From positions 130,758,001 through 130,822,000 of the forward strand of contig OZ024742.1 in assembly GCA_964016885.1 (NCBI GenBank): a DNA stretch of 64,000 bases, in the 5' to 3' direction. The notes below the pieces were generated by a model. It saw only the letters and a program-made list of their open reading frames with translations. It was not told the DNA's origin and did no database searches. The stretch comes from Eledone cirrhosa (Eukaryota). How positions within the stretch are numbered: position 1 is the first letter of the stretch; every line of letters begins with the position of its first letter. This document shows, in pieces, positions 1,340 through 58,902 of the stretch. Position numbers and translations under genes: made by a program.

Positions 1340-3700
1340 AGAAATTCTCGGTGAACTATCCGCTTAAGGACATCCCTATGCCTAGCATATAAGAATTTAC
1401 AAGGTTGGCGATAGGTAAATCGGACTCCTTTGTCCGCAGACTGGGTTGGAAGGCCTTCCACTTGGATAGAGGAACACTAAAAAACCACTCCAGGGAGGGA
1501 ACGCGCGGCATCGAGGGAAAATTCAAATCCAGAAGAAACCCACCGCACAATAAGTACCTGGAGGAATTCGAAAATGAAATGACTAACATAGTGTCCAGCC
1601 TTAAGTTCAGGAAAAACTCACTCAGGGGAAAGAGCTACTTAAAACGACTGAACGGTGATCTAGGAAAACTAAAGAACTCGACCGGCATTCTGGTGCACGC
1701 GGATAAAACGAACAATCTATACGATATGGATAGAGTAACCTATGATGACCTGATAATCAGAGAACTTAGAAAAAACTACAAGAAAACTACACAGGCCAGC
1801 CTGGATCTAATCAGCACGGAGGCCAATAGCGTCATGACTAAACTGGGTATTGAAAATAAAATTGAGCCGTTCCATCCTAGAATTCCGAGTATTTTATTGA
1901 AAGACCACAAATTAAACTTTGAATCGTCAAGACCTGTCAGGCTAATAGCCCCTTCGAAATCTGGCATAGGAATCGTGAGTAAAAACATCCTTGATATAAT
2001 AATCCCCACTCTAGTTAGGAGATCGAAACTTTAATTATGGTCAGGAACTGTGAGAAATCACAGAATAAGAATAGCACTAAGTTTATACAGTTTGATATCT
2101 CTAACTACTACTCTTCGATCTCTCCAACTCTTCTAGGTAAGGCCCTAAACTTTGCTAGCTTACACACCGACCTTACATCGGAAGAAATTAACGTTATTCT
2201 CCTAGCTAGGAAAACCTTGAGTTCAAAGGAGACTTGTGGACTAGGAGAGACTGGCCGGACAATTTCGACATCACCATGGGATCCACGGACGGATCTGGTG
2301 GACCTCTACATCCTCGACTGTCTTGGAGTGGAAATGCCCCACTTGGGAGGTGGGGCTTACCGTGACGACGTTTTGTTTACTGTGTCGTATCATAATAATA
2401 GTATGGTAGAGAGGGTGAGAAAAAAACTAAGCAAATTCTTCAACAACATACACTTAAGTATGGTGTTTGAAGAAAACCTGAAGACAGTTAATTTTCTAGA
2501 TGTTACACTTAACCTCAATTCAGGACTCTTCCAACCCTACCACAAACCCAACGAGAATTTAAATTATGTCAACGCAAAATCGAACCACCCTAGAATAGTC
2601 TCTAACGGTATTACAAAAAGCGTCTCTAGTAGATTTTCAGGACTATCTTCCAATGAAGATACATTCGATAGGATCTCAAATTACTATAATAGCGCCTTGG
2701 AACGCGCGGGGCATAGCGAGGGAATCTCATTCAAACATCCATTAGGTAGTAGTAGCAACATTGTCTGCGATAGTTTAGGCCAAAATAGTGACACTTTAGT
2801 TAAAAACAGGCGGGAAGCGAGGGAGGATCAATATAGACTTCATGTTGTATTGCCTCCTAGTCCCAATGACGACGGTAGCAATGAGAATAACCACCCAGGT
2901 ACAACACGGTGTCCGAGCACCGTACAGCCAGCGGAAACTTTAATTGTAACCTTAACTGTAGAGCTGATAAAACAACCGTTGAACGTAAAATAGAACGAAG
3001 GTCGGGTAGAGGGAATAGGGATAAATGTAGTAGGCGCATAGTGGATATAACCCCGGCTGTCGAGGGTAATTCCAATAATTGCATTTAAGGACTGCCCAGG
3101 GCGGGATGAGGCAGGGCAGAACTAATGTCAATTCTATGCATGAACGGACTCATACGCGTGAGGTGAGTCAGGCCACCCCAACCCCTGGGAACTTACCCAT
3201 AGAGCAGACAAGAACTGAGACCCGATACCAGGAGTACCGTGGTTCCTCAGGAACCATCCCGGTCGGTAGCAGAAAATGCAATTGCAGGAACACCGCTACT
3301 TGCTCCTTGGCTGGGAAATGCCTCACCAAGAACATAGTCTACGACTGTAAGGTCTCCAGTTTAGATAGAACGTTCAGGTATGCTGGGGCAACTGCCACTG
3401 AATTTAAGGATAGATTAGATAAAAAAAGTAGCACGGCGCTTTCTGAATTAGTCTGGAAGCTTAAAGAACAGAATATAGAGCACTCCTTACCCTGGTCCAT
3501 AGTTTGCTCAGCCCAGCCATATAACAGCAGCACGGGCGTTTGTAATTTGTGTATAGCTGAAACCTTTAATATAATTAGAGGCGGTCCCCTACTAATCAAT
3601 AGGCATAGACACCTGCCAGCATAGAACCTCGAAAACCTTCCTCAGGGTTTTTGGAAAGTAACCTACCACTAACTCCACCCTTTTTACCTTTTTGCCATAA
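1340..3700 (+). mobile_element. Penelope-like element, disrupted RT + GIY-YIG ORF
   Basis: ORFs 1405-2034, 2037-2993, 3079-3624: HADKTNNLY, LKDHK, PVRLIAP, FIQFDISNYYSSI, YRDD, FLDVTL, SNHP; linker CNCRNTATC; GIY-YIG IVYDC..YAG; terminal CNLC. Confidence 0.93.
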
Positions 3701-4060
3701 ATGTGTAAGCTAATTCACCTCTAGGGGTTGTATTGATGAACATTAAACTCTGGTATTTATTGCTATCATACCATGAGTTTATTCTATTAGCCTTATTCCT
3801 ATTTGGTTCTGGCTCCTCTATATACTCTGATTTTATTTCTCTGATTGTAACCAGAGAACTGCATACGGTGGATGAAGTGTTGTATGTGTCTCTCTAGTTC
3901 TTTGGGGTTGCACATGCGGGACACGTTTCTCATCACCCGTACCAAATCCGCAATCAGTATGTTGATTTTGGTGTGGTCCGAAACAGCTGAGTTTCGGTGG
4001 ATCAGATATTTGGAAGTCATGGGTTTGGCATAATGGGAATGGAGGATTTGTTTTTTGTTT
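3700..4060 (-). mobile_element. PLE fragment related to the element at 17.2-20.7 kb
   Basis: QILHSHYAKPMTSKYLI...ILIADLVRVMRNVSRMC...QHFIHRMQFSGY closely matches the peptide encoded at ~19240-19450. Confidence 0.9.
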
Positions 4061-4080
4061 AATGGCGCACACATACACAC

Positions 4081-4637: not shown

Positions 4638-4696
4638 CTTACACAAACGTGTCTCTGTCTCTCTCGGCTGTACACATATGTCCACATATATATATA

Positions 4697-4890
4697 ACAA
4701 AGGAATTGTGGTAAGGAACCAGATGGACCATAACGCACCAGAGTACTCAATACTTACGGTGGTAGAGTGGGAAATAGGAAAAAGTATGACCGCCAACGGC
4801 AGAGCTCAAGCTGTTTCGACGGCTATTTCTGGACAGAAATAGCCGTCGAAACGGCTTGAGCTCTGCCGTCGGGGTCATACTTTTTCCTAT
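4697..4890. mobile_element. Fold-back PLE-type element, family A (3' half of HHR plus ~75 nt tail)
   Basis: Palindrome ~4774-4890 centred at tttctg-ga-cagaaa; contains GAAACGGC-loop-GCCGTC-GGGG; homologous to 9112-9285, 50985-51180, 58803-58905; flanked by (TA)n. Confidence 0.85.
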
Positions 4891-5158
4891 ATATATATAT
4901 ATATATATATATATACTTACACAAACGTGTCTCTGTCCGACTCTCTTGGGAGTATACATTCATACATAATCTCAGAGGAACATACACATATCTACATGTG
5001 TGTGTATATATATGTATGTATATATGTGTATGCGCGTGCGTGCGCATGCGTGGGGATATATGTGTGTGCGTGCGCTTGCGTGAGTCTGTATGTGTTTGTA
5101 TATATATATATATATATACAAACACATACATATAAATTTATATATATGCAAACACACA

Positions 5159-9070: not shown

Positions 9071-9111
<41 letters not shown>

Positions 9112-9117
<6 letters not shown>

Positions 9118-9285
9118 ATGTTTAACCTCGACAGCAGAGCTCAAGCCGTTTCGAATAGCCGTCGAAACGGCTTGAGCTCTGCCGTCGGGGTTAAACATTT
9201 TCCTATTACCCACTCTACTACTCTAAATATTGAGTACTCTGGTGCGTTATGGTCCATCTGGTTTCTTACCACACGTCCTTCGTTA
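9112..9285. mobile_element. Fold-back PLE-type element, family A
   Basis: Inverted arms ~9115-9202 around ttcgaatagccgtcgaa; tail to the right; (TA)n on both sides. Confidence 0.85.
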
Positions 9286-9348
9286 TATATATATATAATA
9301 TATATATATATATTTATAAATATGTAGCAAGAGTTGCAGTATTTTTTG

Positions 9349-11920: not shown

Positions 11921-14662
11921 GGATAAGAGAGAAAACACAGGTAAGCATTAAAAAAGGATTTTATCCAGATATTTACGACCGTTTCATTGGTAAGTGCAAC
12001 CTTATATTACTATACTGCAAATAGCAGCCACTCAATAATAATTGTTGTACACGTCCAAATTTTCAAAATAGTTACTCTTAATAAGTTCTTAATATATAAA
12101 AAATATTTTTGGGAATTGTATTTGCTAGTAAATAGAGAGAGGAAGAGGAATTAGAAAGTGGAGGGACAAAGGGAGTAGTATAGAGAGAGAGGAAGGGGGA
12201 GAAGAATTAGGAAGTAGGATGACAAACTGAGATGGAGGGGAGGGTAGAGGTGGAAGGAATCTTTGATCAGTTTTGATATATGTAGACATGATGTCGTCGA
12301 TTTAGTGTGTAGTGAGTTAAAGAGAATTAAATTGTTTATAGTGGGAGGGATGGAGAGAGAGCGAGCGAGAGAAAGTGGGGGGGGGGAGATAGATAGATAA
12401 ATATATATATATATGTATATAAAAAAAAAGAATGGGGGGGGGGGAGAAAGAAGAAAAGAAAAGACATAAAAAAGGGGAGAGAAGAAAGGAAGAAAACGAA
12501 AAGAAATAGAAAAGGAATGAAGGAGAAGGGAGGGATATAGGTATTGGTTTTTGTGGGTAATTAAATAGTATACAATAAGAGGGTAGAAAGTCTAAGTATA
12601 TGCAGTTTGTCAGGTGGTAATAAGAGGTTAAGGGTTCGATTTGCAGTTGTAGTGCGAAAACTTTTCTTTGAGTCTATGGTTACAATAAATCGATCTTTCG
12701 ATTTTATTGTTGTGTAACTTATTCTTCGAACTCAAAATGTGGAACAGCTCAAGGTCACATAATCGACAGCTTCTCATACCACTCCGATATGGGGGCGCGT
12801 TCGATAATTTTTTCCACTTCAGGGTGTATTGGTGGTTACTTTCCTTCAGTTGCCAGGTCTTGTTCGCAAGGGTAGTTACATAACGATGCTGGGAATGTTT
12901 CATTGCGTAACGGTGTGTATACCAACTAGCTTTAAATGTATTCCAGTCGCTCCGATGTAATACCATTTCTGGTTGTCTGATTCCACTGTGCATTGGTAAA
13001 CCAGGTTAGACTGCATATATTCGTTATGTAATGGACAGGTTTCAGGTAGGTGGCAATTACAATTCTTGTCATGGGCAGCCTTGGCATTATTAGTGGGCTG
13101 CGATGCCTGTACAAGTGTGTTACGTCTTGTTTGCCTATTAGTCGGTGGTTGTGTATTAGATATTCTGTTGTGTTCAATGGTATTTGTATTGTTATTGTTA
13201 TAAATTTGTGTTCTGGTGTTGTTACGTATCTTTTTAGCGTTAAGCATCTTAATGTGTGCCTCTATGCTTGGTGCTGTGGAGTAAGATAGTCTAATAGATT
13301 TAGTGTTAAGGACTTTGCTGTATCTATGAGAATCTGGAAAGTGCTTATTTATTATTCTAAAGAAGCTAGAGGGTAGCTTAGTACTAATAGAGGTGTTAAA
13401 TATGGGTTATACCAAATATATTTTCTATTGCGTGACCTGCTTGATTTCGATGTATTTCTATTTTCATTATAATTTGTAGTTCTATGCGTAAATATGTGTG
13501 TGTGTGTGGTTCTGGAGTTTGTGTTATGCGTGTTCATGTGTGCTTTGCGGAGGCTTTCATCTATATATTCTACTCTATCTAAGTGGCCTGCCTTGTCTAG
13601 TGCGGTATTGTAGTACTCTGCATATTCCTCGAAGATTTGTTGGTTAGACGAGAGGCGGGAGATCCTAAGGGATATGCTGCGCGGAAAGGATTTAATTATG
13701 GATAGTGGGTGGTTCGAATTACAGTTGATGTATGCTAAGTTTTCATTAATCTTGTGAAAAGGTCTTACAAGTCCTGTATTTAGGTTAAGTGTTGCGTCGC
13801 GTCTAGAAAGTTAACTATTTTAGTGCTATATTCATACGTTATGCTAAGGCCCAGTTTCCCGATAGTCTTTCTAATATTCTTACGCAGTCTTTCTATGCTC
13901 TGGTTAGGTTCTTAACTAGGAGAAGGGCGTCGTCTCTGTAGATTCCACCGCGAAGGTCGCTAAACTCCCTCTGTAAATTATGGGCTATGTAAATACCTAC
14001 TAAATCTGTGACTTGAGCCGAGTCATTAGCCCCCATCGTGATGTCGAAGTTATTTAATCTATCCTTACGTTCCCAATAGGCGTTTTCAAATTTAATTATT
14101 GTTTTTCTAGCAGCTAATATAATTTTTATCTCGTCGTCTGTCAGGTCAGAATTGGCTTTGGCGAATGCTAAGGCTTTATCCAAGGTGTTGGGAAATATAG
14201 AGGAGTAATAGTCGTTAATGTCAAATTGTATAAACTTAGATACTTTTTTGTTAGCTATATTGTTAAACTATTTAATTGTTTCGGTAGTGTTACCCCATAG
14301 TTTAATTACTAGTTTATTCTTCATTTGTGCTATCACTCTGTCTAATATATGTTTACTAATTTTCCCAATGTCCGATTTGGACATGCATATAAGTCTAATT
14401 GTGGGGTTATAATCAAAATTTACCTTATGATCCTTGAGATTAAATGTGGGGGTACATGGCCTAAGTGGCTCCGTTCTGTCCTCTATTCCTAGGCGTTTGA
14501 CTATATATTGTGCCTCGTTGTTGATGTTTATCAGTGCCGTCTCGTTTGTTTTTTTGTATTTCCTATGTAATTCCTTCCGTATTAAGCTATTGTATGTATT
14601 AATATCCATCGTATACACATTTGAGGTTTTGTGCGCTTTGACAATAATTCCATTGGTGGTTC
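11921..14662 (-). mobile_element. Penelope-like element, 5'-truncated and disrupted
   Basis: KAHKTSNVY, LKDHK, PTIRLI, FDITMGANDSAQVTDLVG, IYRDD, WYNP; linker CNCHLPETC; LVYQC..YYIG GIY-YIG; CRLC; HHR 3' half GAAACGGTC near 11976-11985. Confidence 0.93.
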
Positions 14663-15740
14663 GCAGGCCACTTAGATAGAGTAGAATATATAGATGAAAG
14701 CCTCCGCAAAGCACACACGAACACGCATAACACAAACTCCAGAAACACACGCACGCACACACATTTACGCATAGAACTACAAATTATAATGAAAATAGAA
14801 ATACAACGTCGAAATCAAGCAGGTCACGCAATAGAAAATATATTTGGTATAACCCCATATTTAACACCTCTATTAGTACTAAGCTACTCTCTAGCTTCTT
14901 TAGAATAATAAATAAGCACTTTCCAGATTCATATAGATACAGCAAAATCCTTAACACTAAATCTATTAGACTATCTTACTCCACGGCACCAAACATAGAG
15001 GCACACATTAAGATACTTAACGCTAAAAAGATAGTAACAACACCAGAACACAAATTTATAACAATAACAATACAAATACCATTGAACACAACATAATATC
15101 TGTCCATTACATAAAGAATGTATGCAGTCTAACCTGGTTTACCAATGCACAGTGGAATCAGACAACCAGGAAAGGTATTATATCGGAGCAACTGCAATAC
15201 ATTTAAAGCTCGTTGGTATACACACCGTTACGCAATGAAACATTCCCGGCATCGTTATGTAACTACCCTTGCGAACAAGACCTGGCAACTGAGGGAAAGT
15301 AACCACCAATACACCCTGATGTGGAAAAAAATTATCGAACGCGCCCCTATATCGGAGTGGTATGAGAAGCTGTCGATTATGTAACCTTGAGCTGTTCCAC
15401 ATTTTGAGTTCGAAAAATAAGTTACTCAACAATAAAATCGAAAGATCGATTTATTGTAACCATAGACTCAAAGAAAAGTTTTCGCACTACAAGTGCAAAT
15501 CGAACCCTTAACCTCTTATTACTACCTGACAAACTGCATATACTTAGACTTTCTACCCTCTTATTATATACAACCCCTTTAATTACCCACAAAAACCAAT
15601 ACCTATATCCCTCCCTTCTCCTTCATTCCTTTTCTATTTCTTTTCGTTTTCTTCCTTTCTTCTCTCCCCTTTTTGATGTCTTTTCTTTTCTTCTTTCTTC
15701 CCCCGCCCTTCTTTATTTTATTTATTTATTTATTTATTTA
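14663..15740 (+). mobile_element. Inverted partial copy of the same PLE 3' region
   Basis: Starts gcaggccacttagatagag, the inverse of ~13573-13591; follows ~12430-13590 with an internal deletion near 15100. Confidence 0.93.
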
Positions 15741-15808
15741 TTCATTATATATATATATATATATACGATATATTAACAAATGGAAACTATATTTATAAAA
15801 GCATATTT

Positions 15809-17210: not shown

Positions 17211-20200
17211 AAGGCGATGAATTAGTTTTGCGAGGTTTTTTATATGAAATCGTGTGTCGAAACAAATATTGTTATACTTGGGGAGGGTCATATTTGTGTA
17301 ATATTGCCAGAATTAATAACAGAACACACTCACTGTTTGGTTGGTTTTCGCTCCTCGCTTCTGTGTCTTTTATATCGGTAATCTAACTTACTCGCCATCT
17401 TATTTGCCATCTACAAAAAGATTAACCCCATGGAGTGCAAAACGAAGCTGGAAAAGTGTTTCACAAAAATACGTTGGAATGCAAAGGTAAACAACAACAA
17501 CAACAACAATAATAACGGTAGTAGTAATATAAACAATAACTCTGAGTATAGAAATAACAGCCATAACAATAACAATAGCAGGAAAGTGAGAAATAGTAAT
17601 AATGGTAATAATACTAACGATAGACAGAACAACAACAACCACAATAATAATAATAATAGAAACATTAACCACAGACACAGCAGCAGCGACCACAGTAGTA
17701 ATAACGGTAACAATACGAACAACAACAACAACAACCACCATGATAACAATAATAGCAATACACACAACTATGACGATAGATATAATGACAACCCCTTAGA
17801 GAAACTATTTTTCAACCCAGCTGACAAAACATATAAGATGGGTAATATCTATCCTACGAGGTTACCCTTTAATAAAAGAGTTTGCATACCACAACAAATA
17901 GATGACGAGACAGAGGCACAGTTCACCATAGCTAGAAATAAGATTAGACAAATAGTAGACAGGTATACTAAGAGACAGAGCAGACCAGAGGCCCAACAAC
18001 TTGGGAGGAAACCTGTAGAAGGCTTGGTTAGCCTCAAGCAGCGCACAAGGGATGGTGAGGTAGTATGTCTACCCACGGATAAGTCTGGTAGGATGTCAAT
18101 AGATAGCATGCCGAACTACATCAAGGCTATGCAACCCCACATCACCAACACGAGCGAAATTACACAACAAACACACGATGGGAGAGAGAAAATCCTCAAC
18201 GCTCACATGATGATGTGGACTGACATCCTAAAGCCAAGCAGATGCACTGCCAACAACTTCCAGGCGTCTAACAATGGCATACCACCCTTGTATGGGCTCC
18301 GCAAAGACCACAAGACAGTCGACGACCCGACAACAGGACCACCAACAAGACCCGTATGCGGAGCTAATATAGCTAGTAACTACAGGATCTCCTACTTCCT
18401 CTCAATGGTTATACGCCCCATAAATAAGATGTCCACAGATGTATGTGACAGTACAGAGGACCTCCTCAGCAGAATCAGTGAGTGCAACAAAAACAGGAAC
18501 CTATCCAACTGCATAATAGGCAGCATGGATGTGGTGTCACTGTACCCATCCATTAACATTGATTTTGCTGTGAAAAGATGTGTGGAGATGATCATTGAGA
18601 GTGAGGTGGAGTTCTGCGACGTCGACACAGACGAACTGGGCCTCCTACTTAGACTTACCTACGACACTGACTACCTAGACAGCCATGACCTTAGACGTTT
18701 CTGCCCTAGTAGACCTATAAGAGGTAGACCCCCCACCATAACCTCAATGGCAAAAAAGACTCCCATGGGAAGGTGGATTGGGTGGACCAAAGCTATACGG
18801 ACCCCCCAAAACAATGATCAGGTAAGAAAAATGGTCGCACATGCAATAGGGGCTAGTATCAAAACTACCCTAAAGGACCACATATTTAAGTTCAACGAGA
18901 AGATCTACACCCAAAATGAGGGAGCAGCCATCGGCGTCAGCATAGCTGGTGATGTTGCCAACCTTTTCATGGTATGGTGGGAAAGGAGACTTAAAGATCT
19001 CCTTAATGACCTCATCATGTACTCTCGTTATGTAGACGATATCAATATAGTTATAAGAACTCCCCCACTAGAGAGCACTAACAATTTAGAACGTAGCACG
19101 ATGGAAAGCATCCAGCAGATAGCTAATTCCATACACCAGACTACAACTGTAACTATCGACTTCCCTTCCAAACACCCTAACAATAGACTACCTGTATTAG
19201 ACACAGAACTCTGGATTAACACTATAGACGAGAGAGACCAAATTCTCCACTCACACTATGCTAAACCCATGGCCTCCAAATACCTGATACTAAAAACTCA
19301 GCAATGTCCAGTAGTGCTAAGTTTAATATTCTGATCGCAGATTTGGTACGAGTGATGAAGAATGTGTCCCGCATGTGCGACCCAACAGAAATGGAAAGAC
19401 ACATCCAACACTTCATCAACCGCATGCAGTTCTCTGGCTACAACCAAAGAGACAGTCAGAGTATACGAAGGAGCCATGGAGAAGTATAAGACCCTCATAG
19501 AACTGGACATGAAAGGAATTTGCCCATTATACAGGAGCAAATCATGGAATAGCTTAGATAGGGCTAGACATAAGATAGGGAAAGCCACCTCATGGTACGA
19601 CAACTAGAGATACCAGAGTGTCATGTTTGTGGACGCTACCCCTGGAGGGAAATTAGCTAACCAGTGTAGAAAGGCCCTGAGAAAGACCCACTTAAAAATT
19701 AAGGTGGTAGAAAAGCCAGGAACCACCATAAAATCCCTGATCAGCAAAACCTACCCTTTTAAGAAAACCCACTGTACCAATAGGAAATGTATCATATGTA
19801 AGGTAAACCCCGGATAAACTGTAAAACTAGAAACGTAGTCTATAGCATAAGATGTACAGAGGGTACTTGCAGAAACATGACAACAACATACATAGGTGAG
19901 ACAGCTCGTAGCATAGGTGAAAGGATAGACCAACACTGGGGGGAACTAAAAGGACGAAAAAACGGGTCAGTACTATACGAACATGCTAGACAACAACATG
20001 ACGGTAACATAGACAACATAGAAATTAGAATAATATCTAAACATAGAAATGACCCAGCAGATAGGCAAATCAGAGAGGCCAGTGAAATAGAAATTAGAAG
20101 ACCAAGACTAAACAGAAAGAATGAATGGAATAACAACAACACCCAAACAAACAACACTGACCTAAGAGAAGTATAAATAAGTAAATAAAATAAAATAAAT

Positions 20201-20675
20201 AAATAAATAAATAAATAAATAAATACATACACAAGCACAATAACAACAAGCACATAAACACACACTAGTCACCCATCACACAGCAAACAAAACACTATAC
20301 ACACACGCAAACGCATGCGCAAAGAAGACAAAATAAAATAAACAAACAAGCAAATAAATAAATAAATATATAGACAGACTGAATAAAAATGGCGTAGACA
20401 TACAATACAACAGGAGGAAAAGATAGCACCACTGACAATGTTGCAGATGTGCAACGAAAGATTTATGATAAACTATATATATGTGTTTGTGTCTATATTG
20501 TATCTGTATTATTTTTGACCGTCGGTCAGTCAATGGCAACATTGAGGACCGAGTAAGTTAGATTACCGATATAAAAGACACAGAAGCGAGAAGCGAAAAC
20601 CAACCAAACAGTGAGTGTGTTCTGTTATTAATTCTGGCAATATTACACAAATATGACCCTCCCCAAGTATAAAAA
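17211..20675 (+). mobile_element. Penelope-like element of a second lineage, with inverted terminal arm and tail
   Basis: ~17272-17394 is the inverse of ~20550-20672; left arm has a ~60-nt extension; (TA)n flanks; HHR relic CTGACAA-tgttgca..tgcaac-GAAAG at ~20428-20470. Confidence 0.93.
17430..20176 (+). pseudogene. PLE RT + GIY-YIG polyprotein, frameshifted after ~630 aa
   Basis: LPTDKSG, PPLYGLRKDHK, PTRPVC, SMDVVSLYPSI, QNEGAAIG, RYVDD, LPVLD; linker CTNRKCIIC; VVY..YIGETARSIGER; RQIREASEI; LNRKNE. Confidence 0.92.
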
Positions 20676-21002
20676 TATATATATATAAAGGAAACAGAAA
20701 ACTCAGAAGAGTTAAGCACATAGGCAGTTTCCGCTCATCAGCTGTTTTCTGGGGATCATTATAGTCTCAGATACTTCCAAAGTCAGGAATATTCCCAACC
20801 AGTGCTACAATAGTCGTTAAAGGAAAATAGCTATTCGGCATGAAAACACAACGGACGTTGGACAAAAAAAAAAAACAAACAAAAATCAGAGAAAAAATAA
20901 CAAGAAGACAAAATATCTACATACCGATATAGGAAGGAAAATTGCTACAATCGAAAGCCACACACCAATGTGGGTAGTTAGCCATAATAGGAATAAAGAA
21001 AT

Positions 21003-34532: not shown

Positions 34533-34860
34533 TTGCGTGTGTTTGTGTTTACAAACAAGGCAAGTGATTTAAGAAACTTTTGAAATGTGAACGCTCTATC
34601 CGGCGTTCATTTACTCGATTTTCTCAACTATATTGTTGTAGTAATCGACTATTATTATGGTTATTTTTGCGTTAGGAATCACACAGTTCAAATATATATA
34701 TCATCATCATCACCATCGTTTAACCTCCGTTTTCCATGCTAGAATAGGTTAGACGGCTTGTCCCATTCGTGGAAAGTTGGGTCAGGTGACCGTATCTTAC
34801 CCATATAGAACTGTTTCTGGCTGTTTCTACGGCTGGATGCCCTTCCTAGCGCCAACCACA

Positions 34861-35826
34861 TTTACAGTGTATGTTGGGTGTTTTTGTCGTGACACCTACA
34901 CGACCACTTTACAGTGTGTGCTGGGTGCTTTTTGTCGTGACACCTACACGACCACTTTACAGTGTATGTTGGGTGTTTTTGTCGTAACACCTACACGACC
35001 ACTTTACAGTGTATGTTGGGTGTTTTTGTCGTGACACATACACGACCACTTTACAGTGTGTGCTGGGTGCTTTTTGTCGTGACACCTACACGACCACTTT
35101 ACAGTGTGAGCTGGGTACTTTTTGTCGTGACACCTACACGACCACTTTACAGTGTGAGCTGGGTGCTTTTTGTCGTGACACCTACACGACCACTTTACAG
35201 TGTGAGCTGGGTGCTTTTTGTCGTGACACCTACACGACCACTTTACAGTGTGTGCTGGGTGCTTTTTGTCGTGACACCTACACGACCACTTTACAGTGTG
35301 TGCTGGGTGCTTTTTGTCGTGACACCTACACGACCACTTTACAGTGTGTGCTGGGTGCTTTTTGTCGTGACACCTACACGACCACTTTACAGTGTGAGCT
35401 GGGTGCTTTTTGTCGTGACACCTACACGACCACTTTACAGTGTGTGCTGGGTGCTTTTTGTCGTGACACCTACACGACCACTTTACAGTGTGAGCTGGGT
35501 GCTTTTTGTCGTGACACCTACACGACCACTTTACAGTGTGAGCTGGGTGCTTTTTGTCGTGACACCTACACGACCACTTTACAGTGTGTGCTGGGTGCTT
35601 TTTGTCGTGACACCTACACGACCACTTTACAGTGTGTGCTGGGTGCTTTTTGTCGTGACACCTACACGACCACTTTACAGTGTGAGCTGGGTGCTTTTTG
35701 TCGTGACACCTACACGACCACTTTACCGTGTGAGCTGGGTGCTTTTTGTCGTGACACCTACACGACCACTTTACAGTGTGAGCTGGGTGCTTTTTGTCGT
35801 GACACCTACACGACCACTTTACCGTG
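34861..35826. repeat. 47/48-bp minisatellite, ~20 copies
   Basis: Unit tttacagtgtgWgctgggtgctttttgtcgtgacacctacacgaccac in direct tandem with no spacers. Confidence 0.98.
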
Positions 35827-37969
35827 TTGGTTGGATATATTTTGTTCATTGTGTAATATATGCGTATATATACATGCACCACACACACACACACATAATA
35901 TAACTGGATACAAATTAACTATATTTCATTTATTTAATCATTTATGCTTCATTCTTTATCACCCATTCATGGGTATCTCTGGATTTGAAGAAGAGTCAAA
36001 CTGAAAATACACGTTCCGCTGTATAAGTAAAGAATAGAAAAACTGAAAAAGAAAAATATACATTTTCTCTCTATGTATTCTCTTTATCACTTCTGCAACT
36101 TATGAATCAAACATTAAACTACCTTTAAAAATATATTTAATTCGTGTTCTCTGAGGCAACAGAGTTTTACTAGAAATGTCAGCAACTTTTATTCCCAATG
36201 GCATGTGAACTAATAAAAAAAACATTGAAAACTTTACTAAATGATTTTTGTTGACGAAAAACAACTACAAGTTTACTCTGATTTCTTTTACTCTGATTTT
36301 TACTCTACGGTTTTTTATATTTACCTATATATAAATCTCATTTAATCAATTTCTAAGAGCAGTACTAACCAAGTAATCAACATCTTTTCAGTTGTCCTGT
36401 AATAACACCCAAGACAGCCCTATAACGTTTGACTTTACAGTAAATATGACAAGAATGCTTCTGTCCTTCAAACTCAATGACAAACACACATTCCAAGGTT
36501 ACCAAACGGAATAAGAACATTTCTCAACAAACAGCTGCCATTTCATTTCCTGTTTTTCTTCTACCACTCTCTTACTTTCTCCATGTCCTTCAGTTCGTCT
36601 CCCCCTCGTCTTCCTCTTCATTGATAACATTTCACACACGTCACAGAATTCCTACTTATCTCGGGAAGGCGGGTGTTATTGTTATGGTGTGTTTGGTGCA
36701 GCTGTTGACTGACTCGAACAACTGGAGATGGACAAGTCATTAACATGTCACTTTACCAATTGAACGTTCGGTGGTTCATATCCCGTCATAGGCTCTGTTA
36801 TATAGTTAGCTGAAAACACTTTTTTTCTATTTTGTTATACATAGGTATTATGACAAGACACAATTCCCTGCTGTAATTTGTGGATGTGCAGTATAGATAA
36901 GGGCCACTTCATACACAACAGGACTGCAGTATATAGATGGTGGCATGGAGTCAAACAACATATGTATACAGGAACACACCCAGATACAAATACACATACA
37001 TATGCCCACAAAATGCGTACGCACACATACACATATACATTTGTAGGTCAGCAGTCAATGACTACCACGATATCTGCTGAGGTTTCCTAGACACGTAAGC
37101 ACGTGTATATTCTTCGGATATTCATTTAAAGTCACAATTAGCTCCCAACAGATCGTTGATAAGCTGGGCTTCCATTCAATATGAAGGGACTCCTAATAAA
37201 ACTTATAGATGGCTGCGATATGGTGGAATGTTGAAAGGTGCTGGGGTAATAAATCTGTTGATGATGGATTACGTTGGCAGGGGAGATAACTTCTTAGTTC
37301 TTTTTGGAATTATATTCTACGTGACTTGATTTAAGCACGAACGGTTCTTGAACTAGGTCAGAAGGAAATCCTTTCGGATTTCTTGTTGAGTGATACCACG
37401 AACTGCTTTAGGATGTAAATCTCGAACAGAATGAAGCGGCAATTATGCAATCTACTGGAGTATGAGGAGCTCTATCGACAATGCTTCAGGTTATATTAGG
37501 ACAGTCCTGTCCTTGGTCCTTCAGCATCCATATCAAATGGAGTATTGAGTTCCTCTTTCTCACGAGCTCCACCTCAAAGAAGATGTTGTCTATAACGCCC
37601 ATTGAAATAATTTCCGGATGTCATCTGGTGGAGTTAGCTCTATATGCCTTGCTTACCGTGATTTTGGAATGTCAGTGTCTACTCAGTGAACAAGAATCTC
37701 GATTTCAGCAATTGGAGGTGGCTGGTTAGGAGAATAGTTAGTGTTAGCTTTTATTTTCATTTGTGACTTGCAAAAACTTTTTAATGTCAAATGTTAATTT
37801 TCGATGCTGGTCTTTCCATTTTTCATGTTGAAGTTTCCACTCTTTTGTTGAATCAGCTCCTCAAGTAACAGTTCTCTATTCAAAGTTAAATATCTAATCC
37901 CGATATAATAAGGATTCACCTGGTGTTTATAATACAATTTCTCAAATCTTAGACTTGAGTCAAGAGAAA

Positions 37970-40720: not shown

Positions 40721-40983
40721 GATTTCACCTCCCCCAAGGTGGCAAATCTCACTTAACCGTAGCACATCTCTTCCTCCGATTAAGTGTGATTTCACCTCCT
40801 CCAAGGTGGCAAATCTCACTTAACCGTAGCACATCTCTTCCTCCGATTAAGTGTGATTTCACCTCCTCCAAGGTGGCAAATCTCACTTAACCGTAGCACA
40901 TCTCTTCCTCCGATTAAGTGTGATTTCACCTCCTCCAAGGTGGCAAATCTCACTTAACCGTAGCACATCTCTTCCTCCGGTTA
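40721..40983. repeat. 67-bp tandem repeat, ~3.9 copies
   Basis: Units start at 40721, 40788, 40855, 40922. Confidence 0.97.
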
Positions 40984-46453: not shown

Positions 46454-46486
<33 letters not shown>

Positions 46487-46493
<7 letters not shown>

Positions 46494-46974
46494 GGAGACT
46501 CAAATGAGGATTTGTTTAGAAACAGCAAGCGAATTTGAAGATTAGGTAGTAACATGTGCTTACGCCGTATTTGACTAAATAGAATTAGTCTGTTAGTTGG
46601 GATTTAAAAAAAACCCTTTGAAAGGAAAAAAGAATGAGTATTGACGTACATGGGACACGAACCCACATATTTGGTTTGCTGGAAAATGTGTTACCATTAC
46701 TCCAACACGACACAATGCTTCCTTCCATTCAATTAGAAGCTATAAAACCATAGCAAGTATATATATATATATATGTATATAAATAGGGAGACACAATCAA
46801 GCTTTGTTTAGAAACGGCTATAATGGTAGCCATTGGTCCGGCAAACCAAAGATGTGGGTTCGTATCCCATGTACGCCAATACTCATTCTTTTTCCATTTC
46901 GAGGTTTTTTTAAAAAATCCCAAATAACAGGCTAACTATATTTAGTCAAATACAGCGTAAACACATGTTACTAC

Positions 46975-46980
<6 letters not shown>
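46487..46980. mobile_element. Two adjacent copies of a tRNA-containing element with PLE-type tail architecture
   Basis: ~46541-46700 is the diverged inverse of ~46821-46979; both inserts begin ataaatagggagac after (TA)n. Confidence 0.75.
46642..46711 (-). tRNA. tRNA-like sequence (Ala-like anticodon loop), degenerate; partial second copy at 46821-46878 (+)
   Basis: tggagtaatggta A box, gggttcgtRtccc T arm, ttggt/accaa anticodon stem (intact in second copy) with ccRgcaa loop, gtacgYca 3' end, T-run downstream. Confidence 0.6.
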
Positions 46981-47037
<57 letters not shown>

Positions 47038-48190
47038 ATAATAATAAAATTGAAGACTAAAATCCAAAGAGGGCTCGATAAGGAAAATATATATCAAATA
47101 TATAATAACCGTAGAGCAAATATTTATTAAAATAACAGATTAAAGTTTAAGCAAAGAATCGCTGCTTTCACCCTTAACGGGATCTTCTGAAACTAACAAA
47201 GTCAATCTGTAAACGCAGAACTGGATATTTCAAAAAACGTTGCAACCGGAGGAAGACAGGAAGACGATACTTTGGTTCGTGGAAACGTTCGCTGGCAAAG
47301 AACGGGAAAAAACGAATAATACGTCATTAATAGGAGCGGTGAAAAACAATTACGCGCAAAGACAAAACCACGTATATGGTAGAAAAGAGGTCGTAGACTA
47401 ATGTTCTCTTAGGTGGTGCATAGAGACGTTCTCTGGCAATGAACGAAAAAACGAAGATAATAAGTCATATGTGGAGCGTGGAGAACAAAAGCACGCAAAG
47501 ACAAAACCACGTAAATGGTATAGCAGAAGTCGTAGACTAAGATTCTAACTAGGAGACCAAGTGAATCTCCGCTACAGAGTTAAGAACAAAGTAAATAAAT
47601 ACAATACAGAAGAAATAGAAACAAATAAATACATACACGCAAACAGATATGTACATACACAAGCATACGCAAAACCTTACCATAGGTATACAAAACCACG
47701 CACATATAAATATGTGTGTGTGTGTATGCTTGTGTACAAATAAATAAATAATTATATAAACGTATATAACAAGCGCACACACATACCTACATATAAATAC
47801 ACGAATGTTCAGAGACGTAAGTCAACTAAAACAAGAAGTACACATATACACACACCCACCATACGTACGAACCTGCATACTCACTCGGACGCAAAACTCC
47901 CGTATACACATAGCCAAACCCTAAATACCAGAATATGTAAAAATGATACGCCATAACAGTCAAATATACGTACGAGAAGGTATACATACCTTCACAAAAC
48001 ATATGGGTAATATATACTTACCTATGCAAATAAGTAAAGGAATAAACAAAACATATACTTAGCTCCCACATCAAGACGTAAAATATCCACGTATAGATCG
48101 TGCTATCCGTTAGGGTATAACGTGGGGCTGTAATACAGGAAAGTTTTGTGCAATTTATGTTTACAAGCCGAAATTGCCTCAGATTTTTTG

Positions 48191-49717
48191 AAGTCCGATT
48201 TAGGTAGACTTAGTAAAACGATTCTTGATAGAATTATACCTGATATTAGAAGTTTGGCCCCTCTCGCACTGTGGAACAATTCTTTCGCGGTGATTGATTG
48301 GTTCAACGGCATATGTAACAAGGAACATTGCCGTTTTATCCAATTCGACATCAACAATTACTACTCCTCCATCACTTTACCACTTCTCCTTAGAGCTATC
48401 AATTTCGCTAAAACACTCACAGTGGTTAAGGATTTTGAAGTTGATGTCATCCTTAATGCCCGAAAGTCGGTGATTAATTTCGACGACTCTATTTGGATTA
48501 AAAAATCCTATAGTACCCCATTCGACGTGAGTATGGGCGCCAGTGACTCTGCGGAGGTTACTGATCTTATTGGCCTTTTCCTTCTTTTCTCTATCAAGGA
48601 CGAATTCCCCAACGCGGGCGGTGGTTTGTACCGTGACGATGGTCTTTTGACCATGACTAAGTGCGGACCTCGTGCTTGCGACAGGTTCAGAAAAGAACTC
48701 ACAGCCTTCTTTAAAGGCTTCAACCTCTCTATACAGGTTGAGGCCAATCTCTCGGTCGTTAATTACCTCGACGTTACCCTCAATTTATTGAATGGGTTGC
48801 ATTACCCGTATAGAAAGCCGAATGATACGCTTAATTACATAAGTAAGCATTCCAACCATCCTGCCAGCATAACCAAGAACCTGGTAAGAAACGTTTCGTT
48901 GAGGCTTTCCCGTCTTTCCACCAACGAGCGCATTTTCAACGACCATTCCACTTATTACAATGAAGCTCTTGCTCGAAGTGGATTTGTCGATAAGGTAGCA
49001 TATACAGAGTATGAAAATAGACCTAGAAGAAATAGATCCTGTCGCATTTGTTGGTTTAACCCACCATATAATATGGAGGTGGCCACACCATTAGCTAAGA
49101 TCTTTCTTTCCCTTATTACGAAGCATTTTCCCCCTACACATAAATATAGTAAAATTTTTAATAGAAATACTATTAAAATTTCTTACTCTACGACTCCTAA
49201 CCTTGTACATAACATCACAGCTTCAAATTTAGCTAAACTACCTAGCCGTAGGAACACGTGCAACCCTGTAGTTAGTACAAACTGTAGGAATCGGGCTGAT
49301 TGCCCCCTATCCGGGAAATGCCTCTCTAGTAACATTGTCTACAAATGTAAGGTTGTAACACCCACGTCCCGTAGGGCCTACATAGGGTTAACCGCCAATA
49401 GTTTCAAGCAGCGTCTTTACATGCATACCCATTCTTTTCGTTGCCCTCTGAGAAGGAATATGACGTCACTTTCAGCTTATATCTGGAGTCTAAAAGACAA
49501 CCACACCCAATATAAGTTACACTGGGAGATCCTAGCTAGGGCTAGATCGTATAACGGAAATAAAAGACCATGTGACCTCTGCGCCGCTGAGGCCCTGGAA
49601 ATACTCTACGCCACAGACCACATCTTAAACAAAAAATCTGAGGCAATTTCGGCTTGTAAACATAAATTGCACAAAACTTTCCTGTATTACAGCCCCACGT
49701 TATACCCTAACGGATAG
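48191..49717 (+). CDS. PLE RT + GIY-YIG endonuclease, 5'-truncated but uninterrupted
   Basis: FIQFDINNYYSSI, FDVSMGASDSAEVTDLIG, LYRDD, YLDVTL, SNHP, WFNPPY, CRNRADCPLSGKC, IVYKC..AYIG, CDLC; the first ~15 aa of the listed 523-aa ORF come from the inverted arm. Confidence 0.95.
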   Translation, partial: KSDLGRLSKTILDRIIPDIRSLAPLALWNNSFAVIDWFNGICNKEHCRFIQFDINNYYSSITLPLLLRAINFAKTLTVVKDFEVDVILNARKSVINFDDSIWIKKSYSTPFDVSMGASDSAEVTDLIGLFLLFSIKDEFPNAGGGLYRDDGLLTMTKCGPRACDRFRKELTAFFKGFNLSIQVEANLSVVNYLDVTLNLLNGLHYPYRKPNDTLNYISKHSNHPASITKNLVRNVSLRLSRLSTNERIFNDHSTYYNEALARSGFVDKVAYTEYENRPRRNRSCRICWFNPPYNMEVATPLAKIFLSLITKHFPPTHKYSKIFNRNTIKISYSTTPNLVHNITASNLAKLPSRRNTCNPVVSTNCRNRADCPLSGKCLSSNIVYKCKVVTPTSRRAYIGLTANSFKQRLYMHTHSFRCPLRRNMTSLSAYIWSLKDNHTQYKLHWEILARARSYNGNKRPCDLCAAEALEILYATDHILNKKSEAISACKHKLHKTFLYYSPTLYPNG

Positions 49718-50607
49718 CACGATCTATACGTGGATATTTTACGTCTTGATGTGGGAGCTAAGTATATGTTTTGTTTATTCCTTTACTTATTTGCATAGGT
49801 AAGTATATATTACCCATATGTTTTGTGAAGGTATGTATGCCTTCTCGTACGTATATTTGACTGTTAAGGCGTATCATTTTTACATATTCTAGTATTTAGG
49901 GTTTGGCTATGTGTATACGGGAGTTTTGCGTCCGAGTGAGTATGCAGGTTCGTACGTATGGTGGGTGTGTGTATATGTGTACTTCTTGTTTTAGTTGACT
50001 TACGTCTCCGAACATTCGTGTATTTATATGTAGGTATATGTGTGCGCTTGTTATATACGTTTATATAATTATTTATTTATTTGTACACAAGCATACACAC
50101 ACACATATTTATATGTGCGTGGTTTTGTATACCTATGGTAAGGTTTTGCGTATGCTTGTGTATGTACATATCTGTTTGCGTGTATGTATTTATTTGTTTC
50201 TATTTCTTCTGTATTGTATTTATTTACTTTGTTCTTAACTCTGTAGCGGAGATTCACTTGGTCTCCTAGTTAGAATCTTAGTCTACGACTTCTGCTATAC
50301 CATTTACGTGGTTTTGTCTTTGCGTGCTTTTGTTCTCCACGTTCCACATATGACTTATTATCTTCGTTTTTTCGTTCATTGCCAGAGAACGTCTCTATGC
50401 ACCACCTAAGAGAACATTAGTCTACGACCTCTTTTCTACCATATACGTGGTTTTGTCTTTGCGCGTAATTGTTTTTCACCGCTCCTATTAATGACGTATT
50501 ATTCGTTTTTTCCCGTTCTTTGCCAGCGAACGTTACCACGAACCAAAGTATCGTCTTCCTGTCTTCCTCCGGCTGCAACGTTTTTTGAAATATCCAGTTC
50601 TGCGTTT

Positions 50608-50683
50608 ACAGATTGACTTTGTTAGTTTCAGAAGATCCCGTTAAGGGTGAAAGCAGCGATTCTTTGCTTAAACTTTAATCTGT
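50608..50683 (+). ncRNA. Extended HHR-like fold with CAGAAGA core (mirror at ~47135-47210, minus)
   Basis: acagattga..agttt CAGAAGA t-ccc-gttaa-ggg-t GAAA gca..tgc TT aaact-ttaatctgt. Confidence 0.72.
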
Positions 50684-50690
50684 TATTTTA

Positions 50691-50735
<45 letters not shown>

Positions 50736-50938: not shown

Positions 50939-50984
<46 letters not shown>

Positions 50985-50986
<2 letters not shown>

Positions 50987-51180
50987 GAAAAAGTATGACT
51001 CCGACGGCAGACCTCAAGCCGTTTCGACGGCTATTTCTGGAGTCCAGAAATAGCCGTCGAAACGGCTTCAGCTGTGCCGTCGGGGTCATACTGTTTCCTA
51101 TTTCCCACTCTACCACCCTAAGTATTGAGTACTCTGGTGCGTTATGGTCCATCTGGTTCCTTACCACAATTCCTTTGTTT
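50985..51180. mobile_element. Fold-back PLE-type element, family A
   Basis: Palindrome centred at tttctgga-g-tccagaaa; tail to the right. Confidence 0.87.
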
Positions 51181-51241
51181 TTTATATATATATATATATA
51201 TATAATATAAGATCAAAAGATGGTTAAAGGAGTTCCATATA

Positions 51242-58708: not shown

Positions 58709-58791
<83 letters not shown>

Positions 58792-58802
58792 AAATATATA
58801 TA

Positions 58803-58902
58803 TAACGAAAGAATTGTGGTAAGGAACCAGATGGACCATAACGCACCAAAGTACTCAATACATAGTGTAGTAGAGTGGGTAATAGGAACAAGTATGACTC
58901 AG

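Follow-up and report, generated by a model that had tools for sequence, protein, structure and literature searches.

Positions 46487 to 46980 of the window (the whole stretch of 64,000 nt analysed here, G000:C3:130758001-130822000, from a 3.0-Gb microsatellite-rich animal genome) were described in a first-pass annotation as two inserts in (TA)n that carry a tRNA-like cloverleaf where other PLE-style inserts carry a hammerhead. This raised the question of which enzymes move such an element, and of what the tRNA does in it.

Structure of the insertion in the window

When the locus was aligned to a multimer of the family unit, a single insertion was found instead of two, composed of two arms joined head-to-head at 46820/46821 and bounded by (TA)n target sequence on the left (46458..46488) and on the right (46980..47034). 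The long arm (46489..46820, minus strand; 90% identical to a 1A-unit multimer) comprises unit positions 234-286 plus 1-273 and finishes at the long (L) 3′ end, and the short arm (46821..46979, plus strand) covers unit positions 63-221, starting within the D-arm and stopping at the short (S) 3′ end. The minus arm is unbroken, running from unit position 234 across the junction and through a whole unit to position 273. It begins with a partial tandem, the 3′ end of the preceding unit (46782..46820, positions 234-273), followed by the element's own AT-rich unit junction, here with extra TA (46761..46781), the leader (46712..46760), a tRNA cloverleaf of the 1A type (46642..46711; T58, C33), the trailer (46612..46641) with a T6 run (46626-46631) and, at the far end, the 52-nt tail between the S and L 3′ ends (46489..46540), all on the minus strand. 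The last ~21 nt of the leader are predicted to pair with the trailer, lengthening the acceptor stem, and the T6 run sits 10 nt behind the tRNA-like stretch. All 21 stem pairs of the cloverleaf are formed in the family majority sequence. Both tRNA-like stretches of the window are decayed, with 21.7 bits against RF00005 for the minus-strand one (46642-46711) and 27 bits for the partial plus-strand one, and as these scores are under the gathering score of 29, the window gave no match with Rfam at the gathering threshold, nor with ARAGORN at default settings.

Most of what had been noticed at the locus was recovered, namely the tRNA-like minus-strand stretch, the T-run, the ctacctaat end motif and the tail, the plus arm (46821-46979) stopping at ctacctaat, and (TA)n on both outer sides without poly(A) or a hammerhead. 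The ccagcaa loop is also there, and represents the family loop CCGGCAA altered by CpG decay. Two points had to be revised: at the supposed inverted tail end, the minus arm simply continues 5′ into the unit before it, and the (TA)n in the middle (46761-46781) is the unit's AT-rich junction, which lies between the tail and the next unit in many copies. Elsewhere in the window, tandem repeats of 48 nt (20 copies, 34855-35827) and of 67 nt (4 copies, 40721-40983) were observed.

Repeat family, 3′ ends and mobilisation

The window stretch belongs to a repeat family, with at least 68 matches at 78-98% identity apart from the window itself when 40 of 2,584 candidates were scored. Exact matches in the genome numbered 178 for an 18-mer of the D-arm and 592 for a 17-mer near the 3′ end (subfamily 1A) and 0 for reversed control motifs, and an alignment of 24 of 30 loci had a mean column identity of 91%. 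Sister subfamilies, 1B and 1C, surfaced while host tRNAs sharing this A box were being sought, and the three subfamilies have head-to-tail units of 286 nt (1A, the one in the window), 256 nt (1B) and 270 nt (1C). A 1B/1C motif had 5,642 exact matches, about tenfold more than 1A (592), and a 19-mer common to the family had 3,623; these motif counts suggest a copy number on the order of 10^4 arms. Within-family identity was 91% in 1A versus 93% in 1B/1C, and 1A is somewhat older. The family was present in DNA contigs or reads of organism A and organism B, and as one short piece only in DNA of organism C.

The junction between units is AT-rich in 1A and unique sequence in 1B/1C, and from the latter it follows that the unit is a circularly permuted tandem without a fixed 5′ start. 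A sharp 5′ start considered for 1A turned out to be the AT-rich junction, absent in 1B/1C. The longest arms reach 2.5 units, and arrays of 3-10 units exist in the genome, a three-unit pattern giving 25 matches with 17 true unit arrays at 9 loci. One 10-unit head-to-tail 1C array (G000:C4:61009732-61012196, L399-L406), a patchwork of common variants that ends at S, has the look of satellite-like evolution and is a candidate source locus. Neighbouring array units have private changes in common, which points to local duplication after insertion. The units inside one insertion had diverged to much the same extent (103/131/126 private differences; p 0.16 over 44 non-independent comparisons), which is compatible with a circle or with a homogeneous tandem as template. 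Minisatellites made from pieces of the 1B unit (36-nt and 64-nt units) were also seen, at G000:C9:10274033-10275951 and G000:C17:22968664-22969442.

Arm ends were scored in samples of 1A and 1B/1C taken in position order from the first 100 motif matches listed, with locus-edge arms and duplicates removed (97 to 90 and 80 to 79 arms). The two 3′ ends S and L were fixed, 52 nt apart in 1A and with a tail of about 35-45 nt between them in 1B/1C; 72 position-ordered 1A arms ended 31 times at S, 34 times at L and 7 times elsewhere, and 90 1B/1C arms 47, 41 and 2 times, respectively. S was placed in the loop of a second predicted stem, kept in all three subfamilies. Among head-to-head pairs, 18/20 in 1B/1C were L+S, and the 75 pairs in 1A, a sample for which some loci were picked on their L end, comprised 35 L+S, 8 L+L, 2 S+S and 30 with an unclassified end. 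A TA-type flank was found at 26/31 S ends and 25/34 L ends in 1A, compared to 14% of random window positions, and at 76/90 ends in 1B/1C by a slightly wider test. The 5′ ends were scattered, and partial tandems were present. No poly(A) tail (A8 at the 3′ end) was detected in 169 arms, and no convincing target duplication in 69 single arms, where four 7-nt non-microsatellite direct repeats and three TA/TG-like ones were counted and where (TA)n can hide duplications. Terminal inverted repeats were likewise absent, with self-inverse scores of 19-27 only.

A purified PLE cuts both strands of AT-rich DNA and starts reverse transcription at two internal sites, with the tail being the sequence between them, as described in the available sections of PMC11167929; those of PMC8557442 report pLTRs, inverted truncated copies, one-sided tails, (TA)n targets and non-autonomous head-to-tail PLE derivatives. 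From the match to this geometry we infer mobilisation by PLE enzymes, and our analysis makes a non-autonomous, ORF-less tandem element the most likely reading. Two 3′ ends, a one-sided tail on the inverted arm, partial tandems and (TA)n targets are what a non-autonomous PLE would have. The unit has no ORF with RT and GIY-YIG endonuclease as in an autonomous PLE (the longest stop-free stretch in unit multimers is 63-68 aa, with no open frame over 68 codons), and neither the terminal inverted repeats nor the two fixed ends of a MITE or DNA transposon. That the element is PLE-mobilised, and that its tRNA fold is real and under selection, can be held with high confidence.

The two-endpoint geometry proposed from the window was thus borne out by the S and L ends, the L+S pairs, the partial tandems and the (TA)n flanks, as was the lack of poly(A) and of convincing target duplications. 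Of the two identities suggested with it, the terminal repeat of an autonomous PLE has to be given up, since no copy examined extends 5′ into an ORF and long arms enter the previous unit. A tRNA SINE mobilised by PLE enzymes survives in its PLE half but not as a classical SINE with a tRNA head, because most arms that reach the tRNA 5′ end run past position -25. LINE-type tails, terminal inverted repeats and hammerheads in longer copies, named beforehand as adverse outcomes, were not found, and the tRNA proved to be complete and conserved and not an incidental fragment.

A candidate enzyme donor, PLE-A, adjoins the element (47037..50730, plus strand), with a 527-aa RT/GIY-YIG frame at 48134-49717 that is unnamed by Pfam and grouped with RT/GIY-YIG clusters by the Atlas. 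Its window copy has a long plus short geometry, a ~85-nt tail and 1.1-kb inverted arms 98% identical to each other, with the hammerhead-like core CAGAAGA in both. PLE-E, abundant in the same genome (L366-L395; window 4686-4915, 9075-9310, 50958-51189 and 58739-58898), has its frames upstream in L364 and in 10/30 loci, and carries a full-length type I hammerhead with U3/A8 instead of C3/G8 in the core and a hairpin in the stem II loop. Both protein-coding elements have the geometry of 1A/1B/1C. Three more PLE-like copies, of different families, occupy window positions 1393-4065, 12389-15790 and 17266-20678, the last with its own ~60-nt tail.

In L159, a PLE-A L arm is joined head-to-head to a 1A S arm, with no other PLE-A in 9 kb. 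No other chimera turned up in about 135 pairs and 143 single arms, and L159 could also have arisen by nested insertion in a TA run. Two further candidates were discarded, L131 as a PLE chimera, which was only (TA)n, and L243 as a 1B/1C chimera, in which both arms belong to one intermediate subfamily.

No hammerhead was found when the three units were scanned on both strands for a core plus helix I, and no ribozyme by Rfam scans, in agreement with the first-pass annotation; the core-plus-helix-I scan was positive on PLE-E but failed on the two PLE-A copies of the window, which shows that its sensitivity is limited. In about 0.9 Mb of masked loci, a 3′-domain profile matched, post hoc and at E 1.2-1.5, the PLE-E hammerhead region, and about 50 nt of 1B align with that region, including the ribozyme GAAA, with the S ends in register. 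Shuffling gave p values of 0.003 for 1B, 0.03 for 1A and 0.08 for 1C for this post hoc match, and the flanks alone were non-significant. Descent from a PLE end whose hammerhead core was deleted is at most a lead suggested by this alignment.

The tRNA module and the stop at position 58

Against RF00005, 10 of the 12 loci scanned scored 34-57 bits, with 56.7 bits for the best copy. The cloverleaf is complete (71-72 nt), with 21/21 stem pairs in 1A and 20/21 in 1B and in 1C, and 3/4 stem changes between 1A and 1B keep pairing; covariation within 1A alone was nil. Conservation between subfamilies is highest in the tRNA, with identities of 62/71, 63/72 and 70/72, compared to 83/135, 85/144 and 97/125 for the 3′ domain (p for the tRNA excess about 1e-4 to 1e-5). 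In each subfamily, leader and trailer are predicted to form a stem of 17-21 bp that extends the acceptor stem, with matching indels, and this duplex reaches -19 to -25 kcal/mol compared to -10 to -13 for the best other windows; the folding z-scores of the whole unit were modest (-2.3 and -1.8). The A and B boxes are intact in 1B/1C, the B box of 1A has T58/G59, and the T run 10 nt behind the tRNA is T5 in 1B and 1C and T6, with a second T6, in 1A.

The anticodon varies (GGC, GGA, CGA), with C33 or T37 in places, and the anticodon loops (CCGGCAA, CTGGATA, CCGGATA, CGCGATA) lack a fixed anticodon, U33 and purine 37; such variation means that this is not a decoding tRNA. Nor is it the head of a tRNA SINE, as the tRNA lies inside the element and not at its 5′ end, no poly(A) or LINE tail and no convincing target-site duplication accompany it, and 16/21 and 16/20 of the arms that reach the tRNA 5′ end run beyond -25. 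Identity to the host tRNA-like sequences compared was 41-45 of 72-76 positions (host tRNA-Gln, 41-45 of 72-73). The best matches were phage tRNA-Trp genes (51-55 of 73-74), chosen by patterns drawn from the element, and one pattern each gave no match in prokaryote genomes and in metagenomes. A second tRNA-bearing family (L163, L165-L173) has two fixed ends and was treated as unrelated. It is a ~1.7-kb repeat (e.g. G000:C1:167123738-167123810) whose fixed ends both lie in TA runs and which carries a terminal hairpin, an inverted repeat of ~175 bp in its interior and a full cloverleaf with the loop CCGGCAA or CTGGCAA; it accounted for 10/16 RF00005 matches in one scan, and it is probably a non-autonomous DNA element.

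The T loop distinguishes the subfamilies, being of the standard type with A58 in 1B/1C and T58/G59 in 1A; five T58/G59 rows sorted under 1C are probably mis-sorted 1A copies. RT passes ended at tRNA positions 57-66 in 39/65 cases in 1B/1C versus 5/54 in 1A (Fisher p 5e-9), whereas the loss in flanking 10-nt windows of 1B/1C was 0-14%. This count includes 10 palindromic arms that the aligner had misplaced at position 43 and that belong at position 63; before the correction it was 29/65 versus 5/54 (p 1.6e-5). The contrast held with one arm per insertion (median 28/45 versus 4/47, worst p 1e-6 in 200 draws) and in arms not joined to their own inverse (12/22 versus 2/28, p 3e-4). The CATG palindrome at the joint exists in 1A too, and therefore microhomology alone cannot explain the A58 stop. 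Two other heaps of 5′ ends were dismissed, that at position 43 as an alignment artefact of palindromic joins and that of 1A at unit positions 60-66 as largely D-stem microhomology in inverted joins.

The ends reach position 60, and four arms seem to include A58 itself, three of which may borrow letters from the partner arm, whereas L337 cannot. As m1A truncates cDNA (PMC11019740, in the part available) and TRMT6/61A modifies precursor tRNAs (10.64898/2026.05.17.725798, likewise), a block by m1A58 is the explanation that we lean towards, at somewhat better than even confidence. Read-through 1B copies had no excess of mismatches at A58 (4/63, background 5.4%), and this, like the difference in age between 1A and 1B/1C, counts against m1A. 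A barrier formed by the unmodified T loop is unlikely but a serious contender, and cleavage in the T loop is less probable again. Under any of the three, the template must have behaved as a tRNA in vivo.

Proposed mechanism, alternatives and known systems

An internal Pol III promoter is our best guess for the role of the tRNA module, held at a little below even confidence. The intact A and B boxes, the roughly tenfold success of the A58 subfamilies despite the stop and the precedent of schistosome tandem SINE-like elements, for which a promoter in the upstream unit is described in the available sections of PMC6765202, fit this role. Transcription would begin in the upstream unit of a tandem and leak past the T5/T6 run into the units that follow. 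The resulting RNA would fold as a tRNA on its 17-21-bp stem, which would hinder RNase P and RNase Z, and its A58 would be methylated by TRMT6/61A. The PLE protein would then nick (TA)n on both strands, and two cDNAs would begin at the internal sites S and L; most would stall at m1A58 and be joined, through short homology, to one another or to the target, and those that read through would rebuild partial tandems, later lengthened by local duplication. The chain as a whole, a PLE-copied tandem retro-element with its own Pol III promoter, is a tentative proposal that falls just short of an even chance. Against its promoter step, every template had passed through the T5/T6 run behind the tRNA, arms stopping at -25..+5 were 5/21 and 4/20 with no heap at the expected Pol III start, and 1A spread although its B box is broken.

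Arms that continue beyond the tRNA 5′ end and a T5/T6 run within the template would fit a PLE-mobilised RNA made by Pol II read-through from host introns or neighbouring PLE terminal repeats, in which the tRNA fold would act at the RNA level, for stability, export or docking near the ribosomes that make the PLE protein, a role known from the SINE literature. It is the stems that are kept, and not the boxes alone, the leader/trailer stem survives with matching indels, and the copies often adjoin PLE ends in the same TA run. However, the 143 single arms have no common upstream host sequence of the kind left by 5′ transduction, and the abundant subfamilies keep perfect A and B boxes, so that we regard this origin of the RNA, and these roles of its fold, as possible but rather unlikely. 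It is improbable that the tRNA took over from the hammerhead the release of units from long transcripts, by RNase P/Z or by a tRNA splicing route yielding circles. The full cloverleaf, the lack of a detected hammerhead, an RNA apparently recognised by the tRNA machinery and the equal divergence of units within an insertion, as a circle would give, speak for it, and a cut at the downstream unit would form an RNA 3′ end unrecorded by internal RT starts. Nevertheless, ends at the RNase P site were 3/22 and 2/21 and those at the RNase Z site (72-78) 0/67 and 2/56, so the efficient RNase P/Z signal suggested at first finds no excess of ends in its favour; only efficient cutting is excluded by this, and partial or 3′-end-only cutting is possible. 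The leader is also predicted to pair with the trailer, and leader pairing inhibits nuclear RNase P and RNase Z. For bacterial RNase P such inhibition is described in the available part of PMC9433436. Arrays of 3-10 units with local duplication, moreover, make circles unnecessary.

Chance capture of a tRNA gene and its flanks by a short PLE derivative, with the tRNA as a passenger, is very improbable: a T run 10 nt behind the tRNA does resemble the flank of a real tRNA gene, and the A58 stop is a cost, but a costly passenger should decay, and this tRNA is the most conserved part of the unit and fully paired despite its low identity (41-45 of 72-76) to host tRNA-like sequences. We give as little weight to an ordinary tRNA SINE moved by a LINE, to a MITE or to a Helitron-type element, with a geometry produced by microsatellite rearrangement. 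The tRNA boxes would suit the first, and head-to-tail arrays also occur with Helitrons; this reading is largely refuted by the lack of A8 in the 169 arms, the few direct repeats, the absence of terminal inverted repeats, the two 3′ ends with one per arm, and the internal position of the tRNA in a permuted unit. Canonical tRNA-derived SINEs have A and B boxes of tRNA origin, a LINE tail or poly(A) and a target duplication. In contrast to them, the present element has its tRNA inside, with leader and T run within the copied unit and neither poly(A) nor a clear duplication.

The schistosome element Sm-alpha is tRNA-related. In the accessible description of Sm-alpha and Sj-alpha (PMC6765202), they likewise have a short tandem unit, an apparent Pol III promoter and an upstream unit that transcribes the downstream one, but they carry an active hammerhead, unlike 1A/1B/1C, and neither the PLE two-end geometry nor a conserved full cloverleaf is described there. 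Metazoan non-LTR retrozymes, as presented in the part of PMC7761336 at hand, are similar in their tandem units of 150-300 nt, their proposed PLE mobilisation and cDNAs longer than one unit; they are defined by a hammerhead and circular RNA, whereas here no hammerhead was found and a tRNA module is present instead. PLEs encode RT/GIY-YIG, usually with a hammerhead, and have tails of typically 30-40 nt according to the sections available of PMC11167929, compared to a unit without either and tails of 52 nt in 1A and about 35-45 nt in 1B/1C; Poseidon PAc, from the same source, likewise has two internal RT starts, an optional tail, AT-rich two-strand cuts and inverted 5′-truncated arms. The Chlamys-dependent MRC1 of Chlamydomonas (Craig et al. 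2021, PMC8557442) is also ORF-less, with partial tandems, head-to-tail insertions and microsatellite targets, and most Chlamys and Naiad elements are, as here, without a canonical hammerhead. Elements of the MRC1 type resemble their autonomous partner at the 3′ end, a likeness weakly suggested here, and no tRNA module of MRC1 or its kin is mentioned in the accessible passages of that source, whose single 'tRNA' concerns selenocysteine and whose supplements could list such families. The closest systems thus seem, by these partial descriptions, either to lack a tRNA or to have a hammerhead. In the open-access literature, no paper was found on a hammerhead-less, tRNA-bearing PLE passenger or on an A58 truncation signature, and neither feature appears in the accessible parts of a recent octopus repeat annotation (PMC13282606) or of a butterfly preprint (10.1101/596502).

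More speculatively, and with doubts that outweigh our confidence, these elements may represent a distinct class of tRNA-mimic PLE parasites across invertebrate phyla, derived from a PLE terminal repeat by loss of the hammerhead core and gain of a nuclease-shielded tRNA, methylated at A58 in the germ line, with thousands of truncated copies that record the modification and with 1A as a position-58 escape mutant. If PLE mobilisation is true, PLE enzymes would be added to the machineries that mobilise tRNA-derived elements, here with a design of the unit unlike that of classical SINEs (permuted tandem, internal RT starts, tRNA inside), and PLE-type mobility would again need no hammerhead. If the A58-linked stop reflects methylation, it would be a DNA-level record of germ-line RNA modification on transposon RNA, for which the T58 subfamily 1A offers a natural control in the same genome. 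A cargo of 260-290 nt with defined start sites would also be a compact substrate for the study of PLE trans-recognition.

The family also bears on tRNA annotation. With default settings, ARAGORN called many copies tRNA-Ala(GGC) or tRNA-Ser(GGA/CGA), with 29, 38 and 12+7 calls in L001-L160, L178-L211 and L271-L352, among which loci overlap. Anticodons of the GGA/GGC type are normally avoided by eukaryotes, and copies called tRNA-Ser(GGA) or tRNA-Ala(GGC) by default tRNA finders can inflate tRNA annotations. Among the other loci retrieved, L162 and L164 (G000:C1:243.65-243.68 Mb) form a tandem cluster of host tRNA-Thr genes, and L177 is a host tRNA-Gln gene with a decayed family copy nearby.
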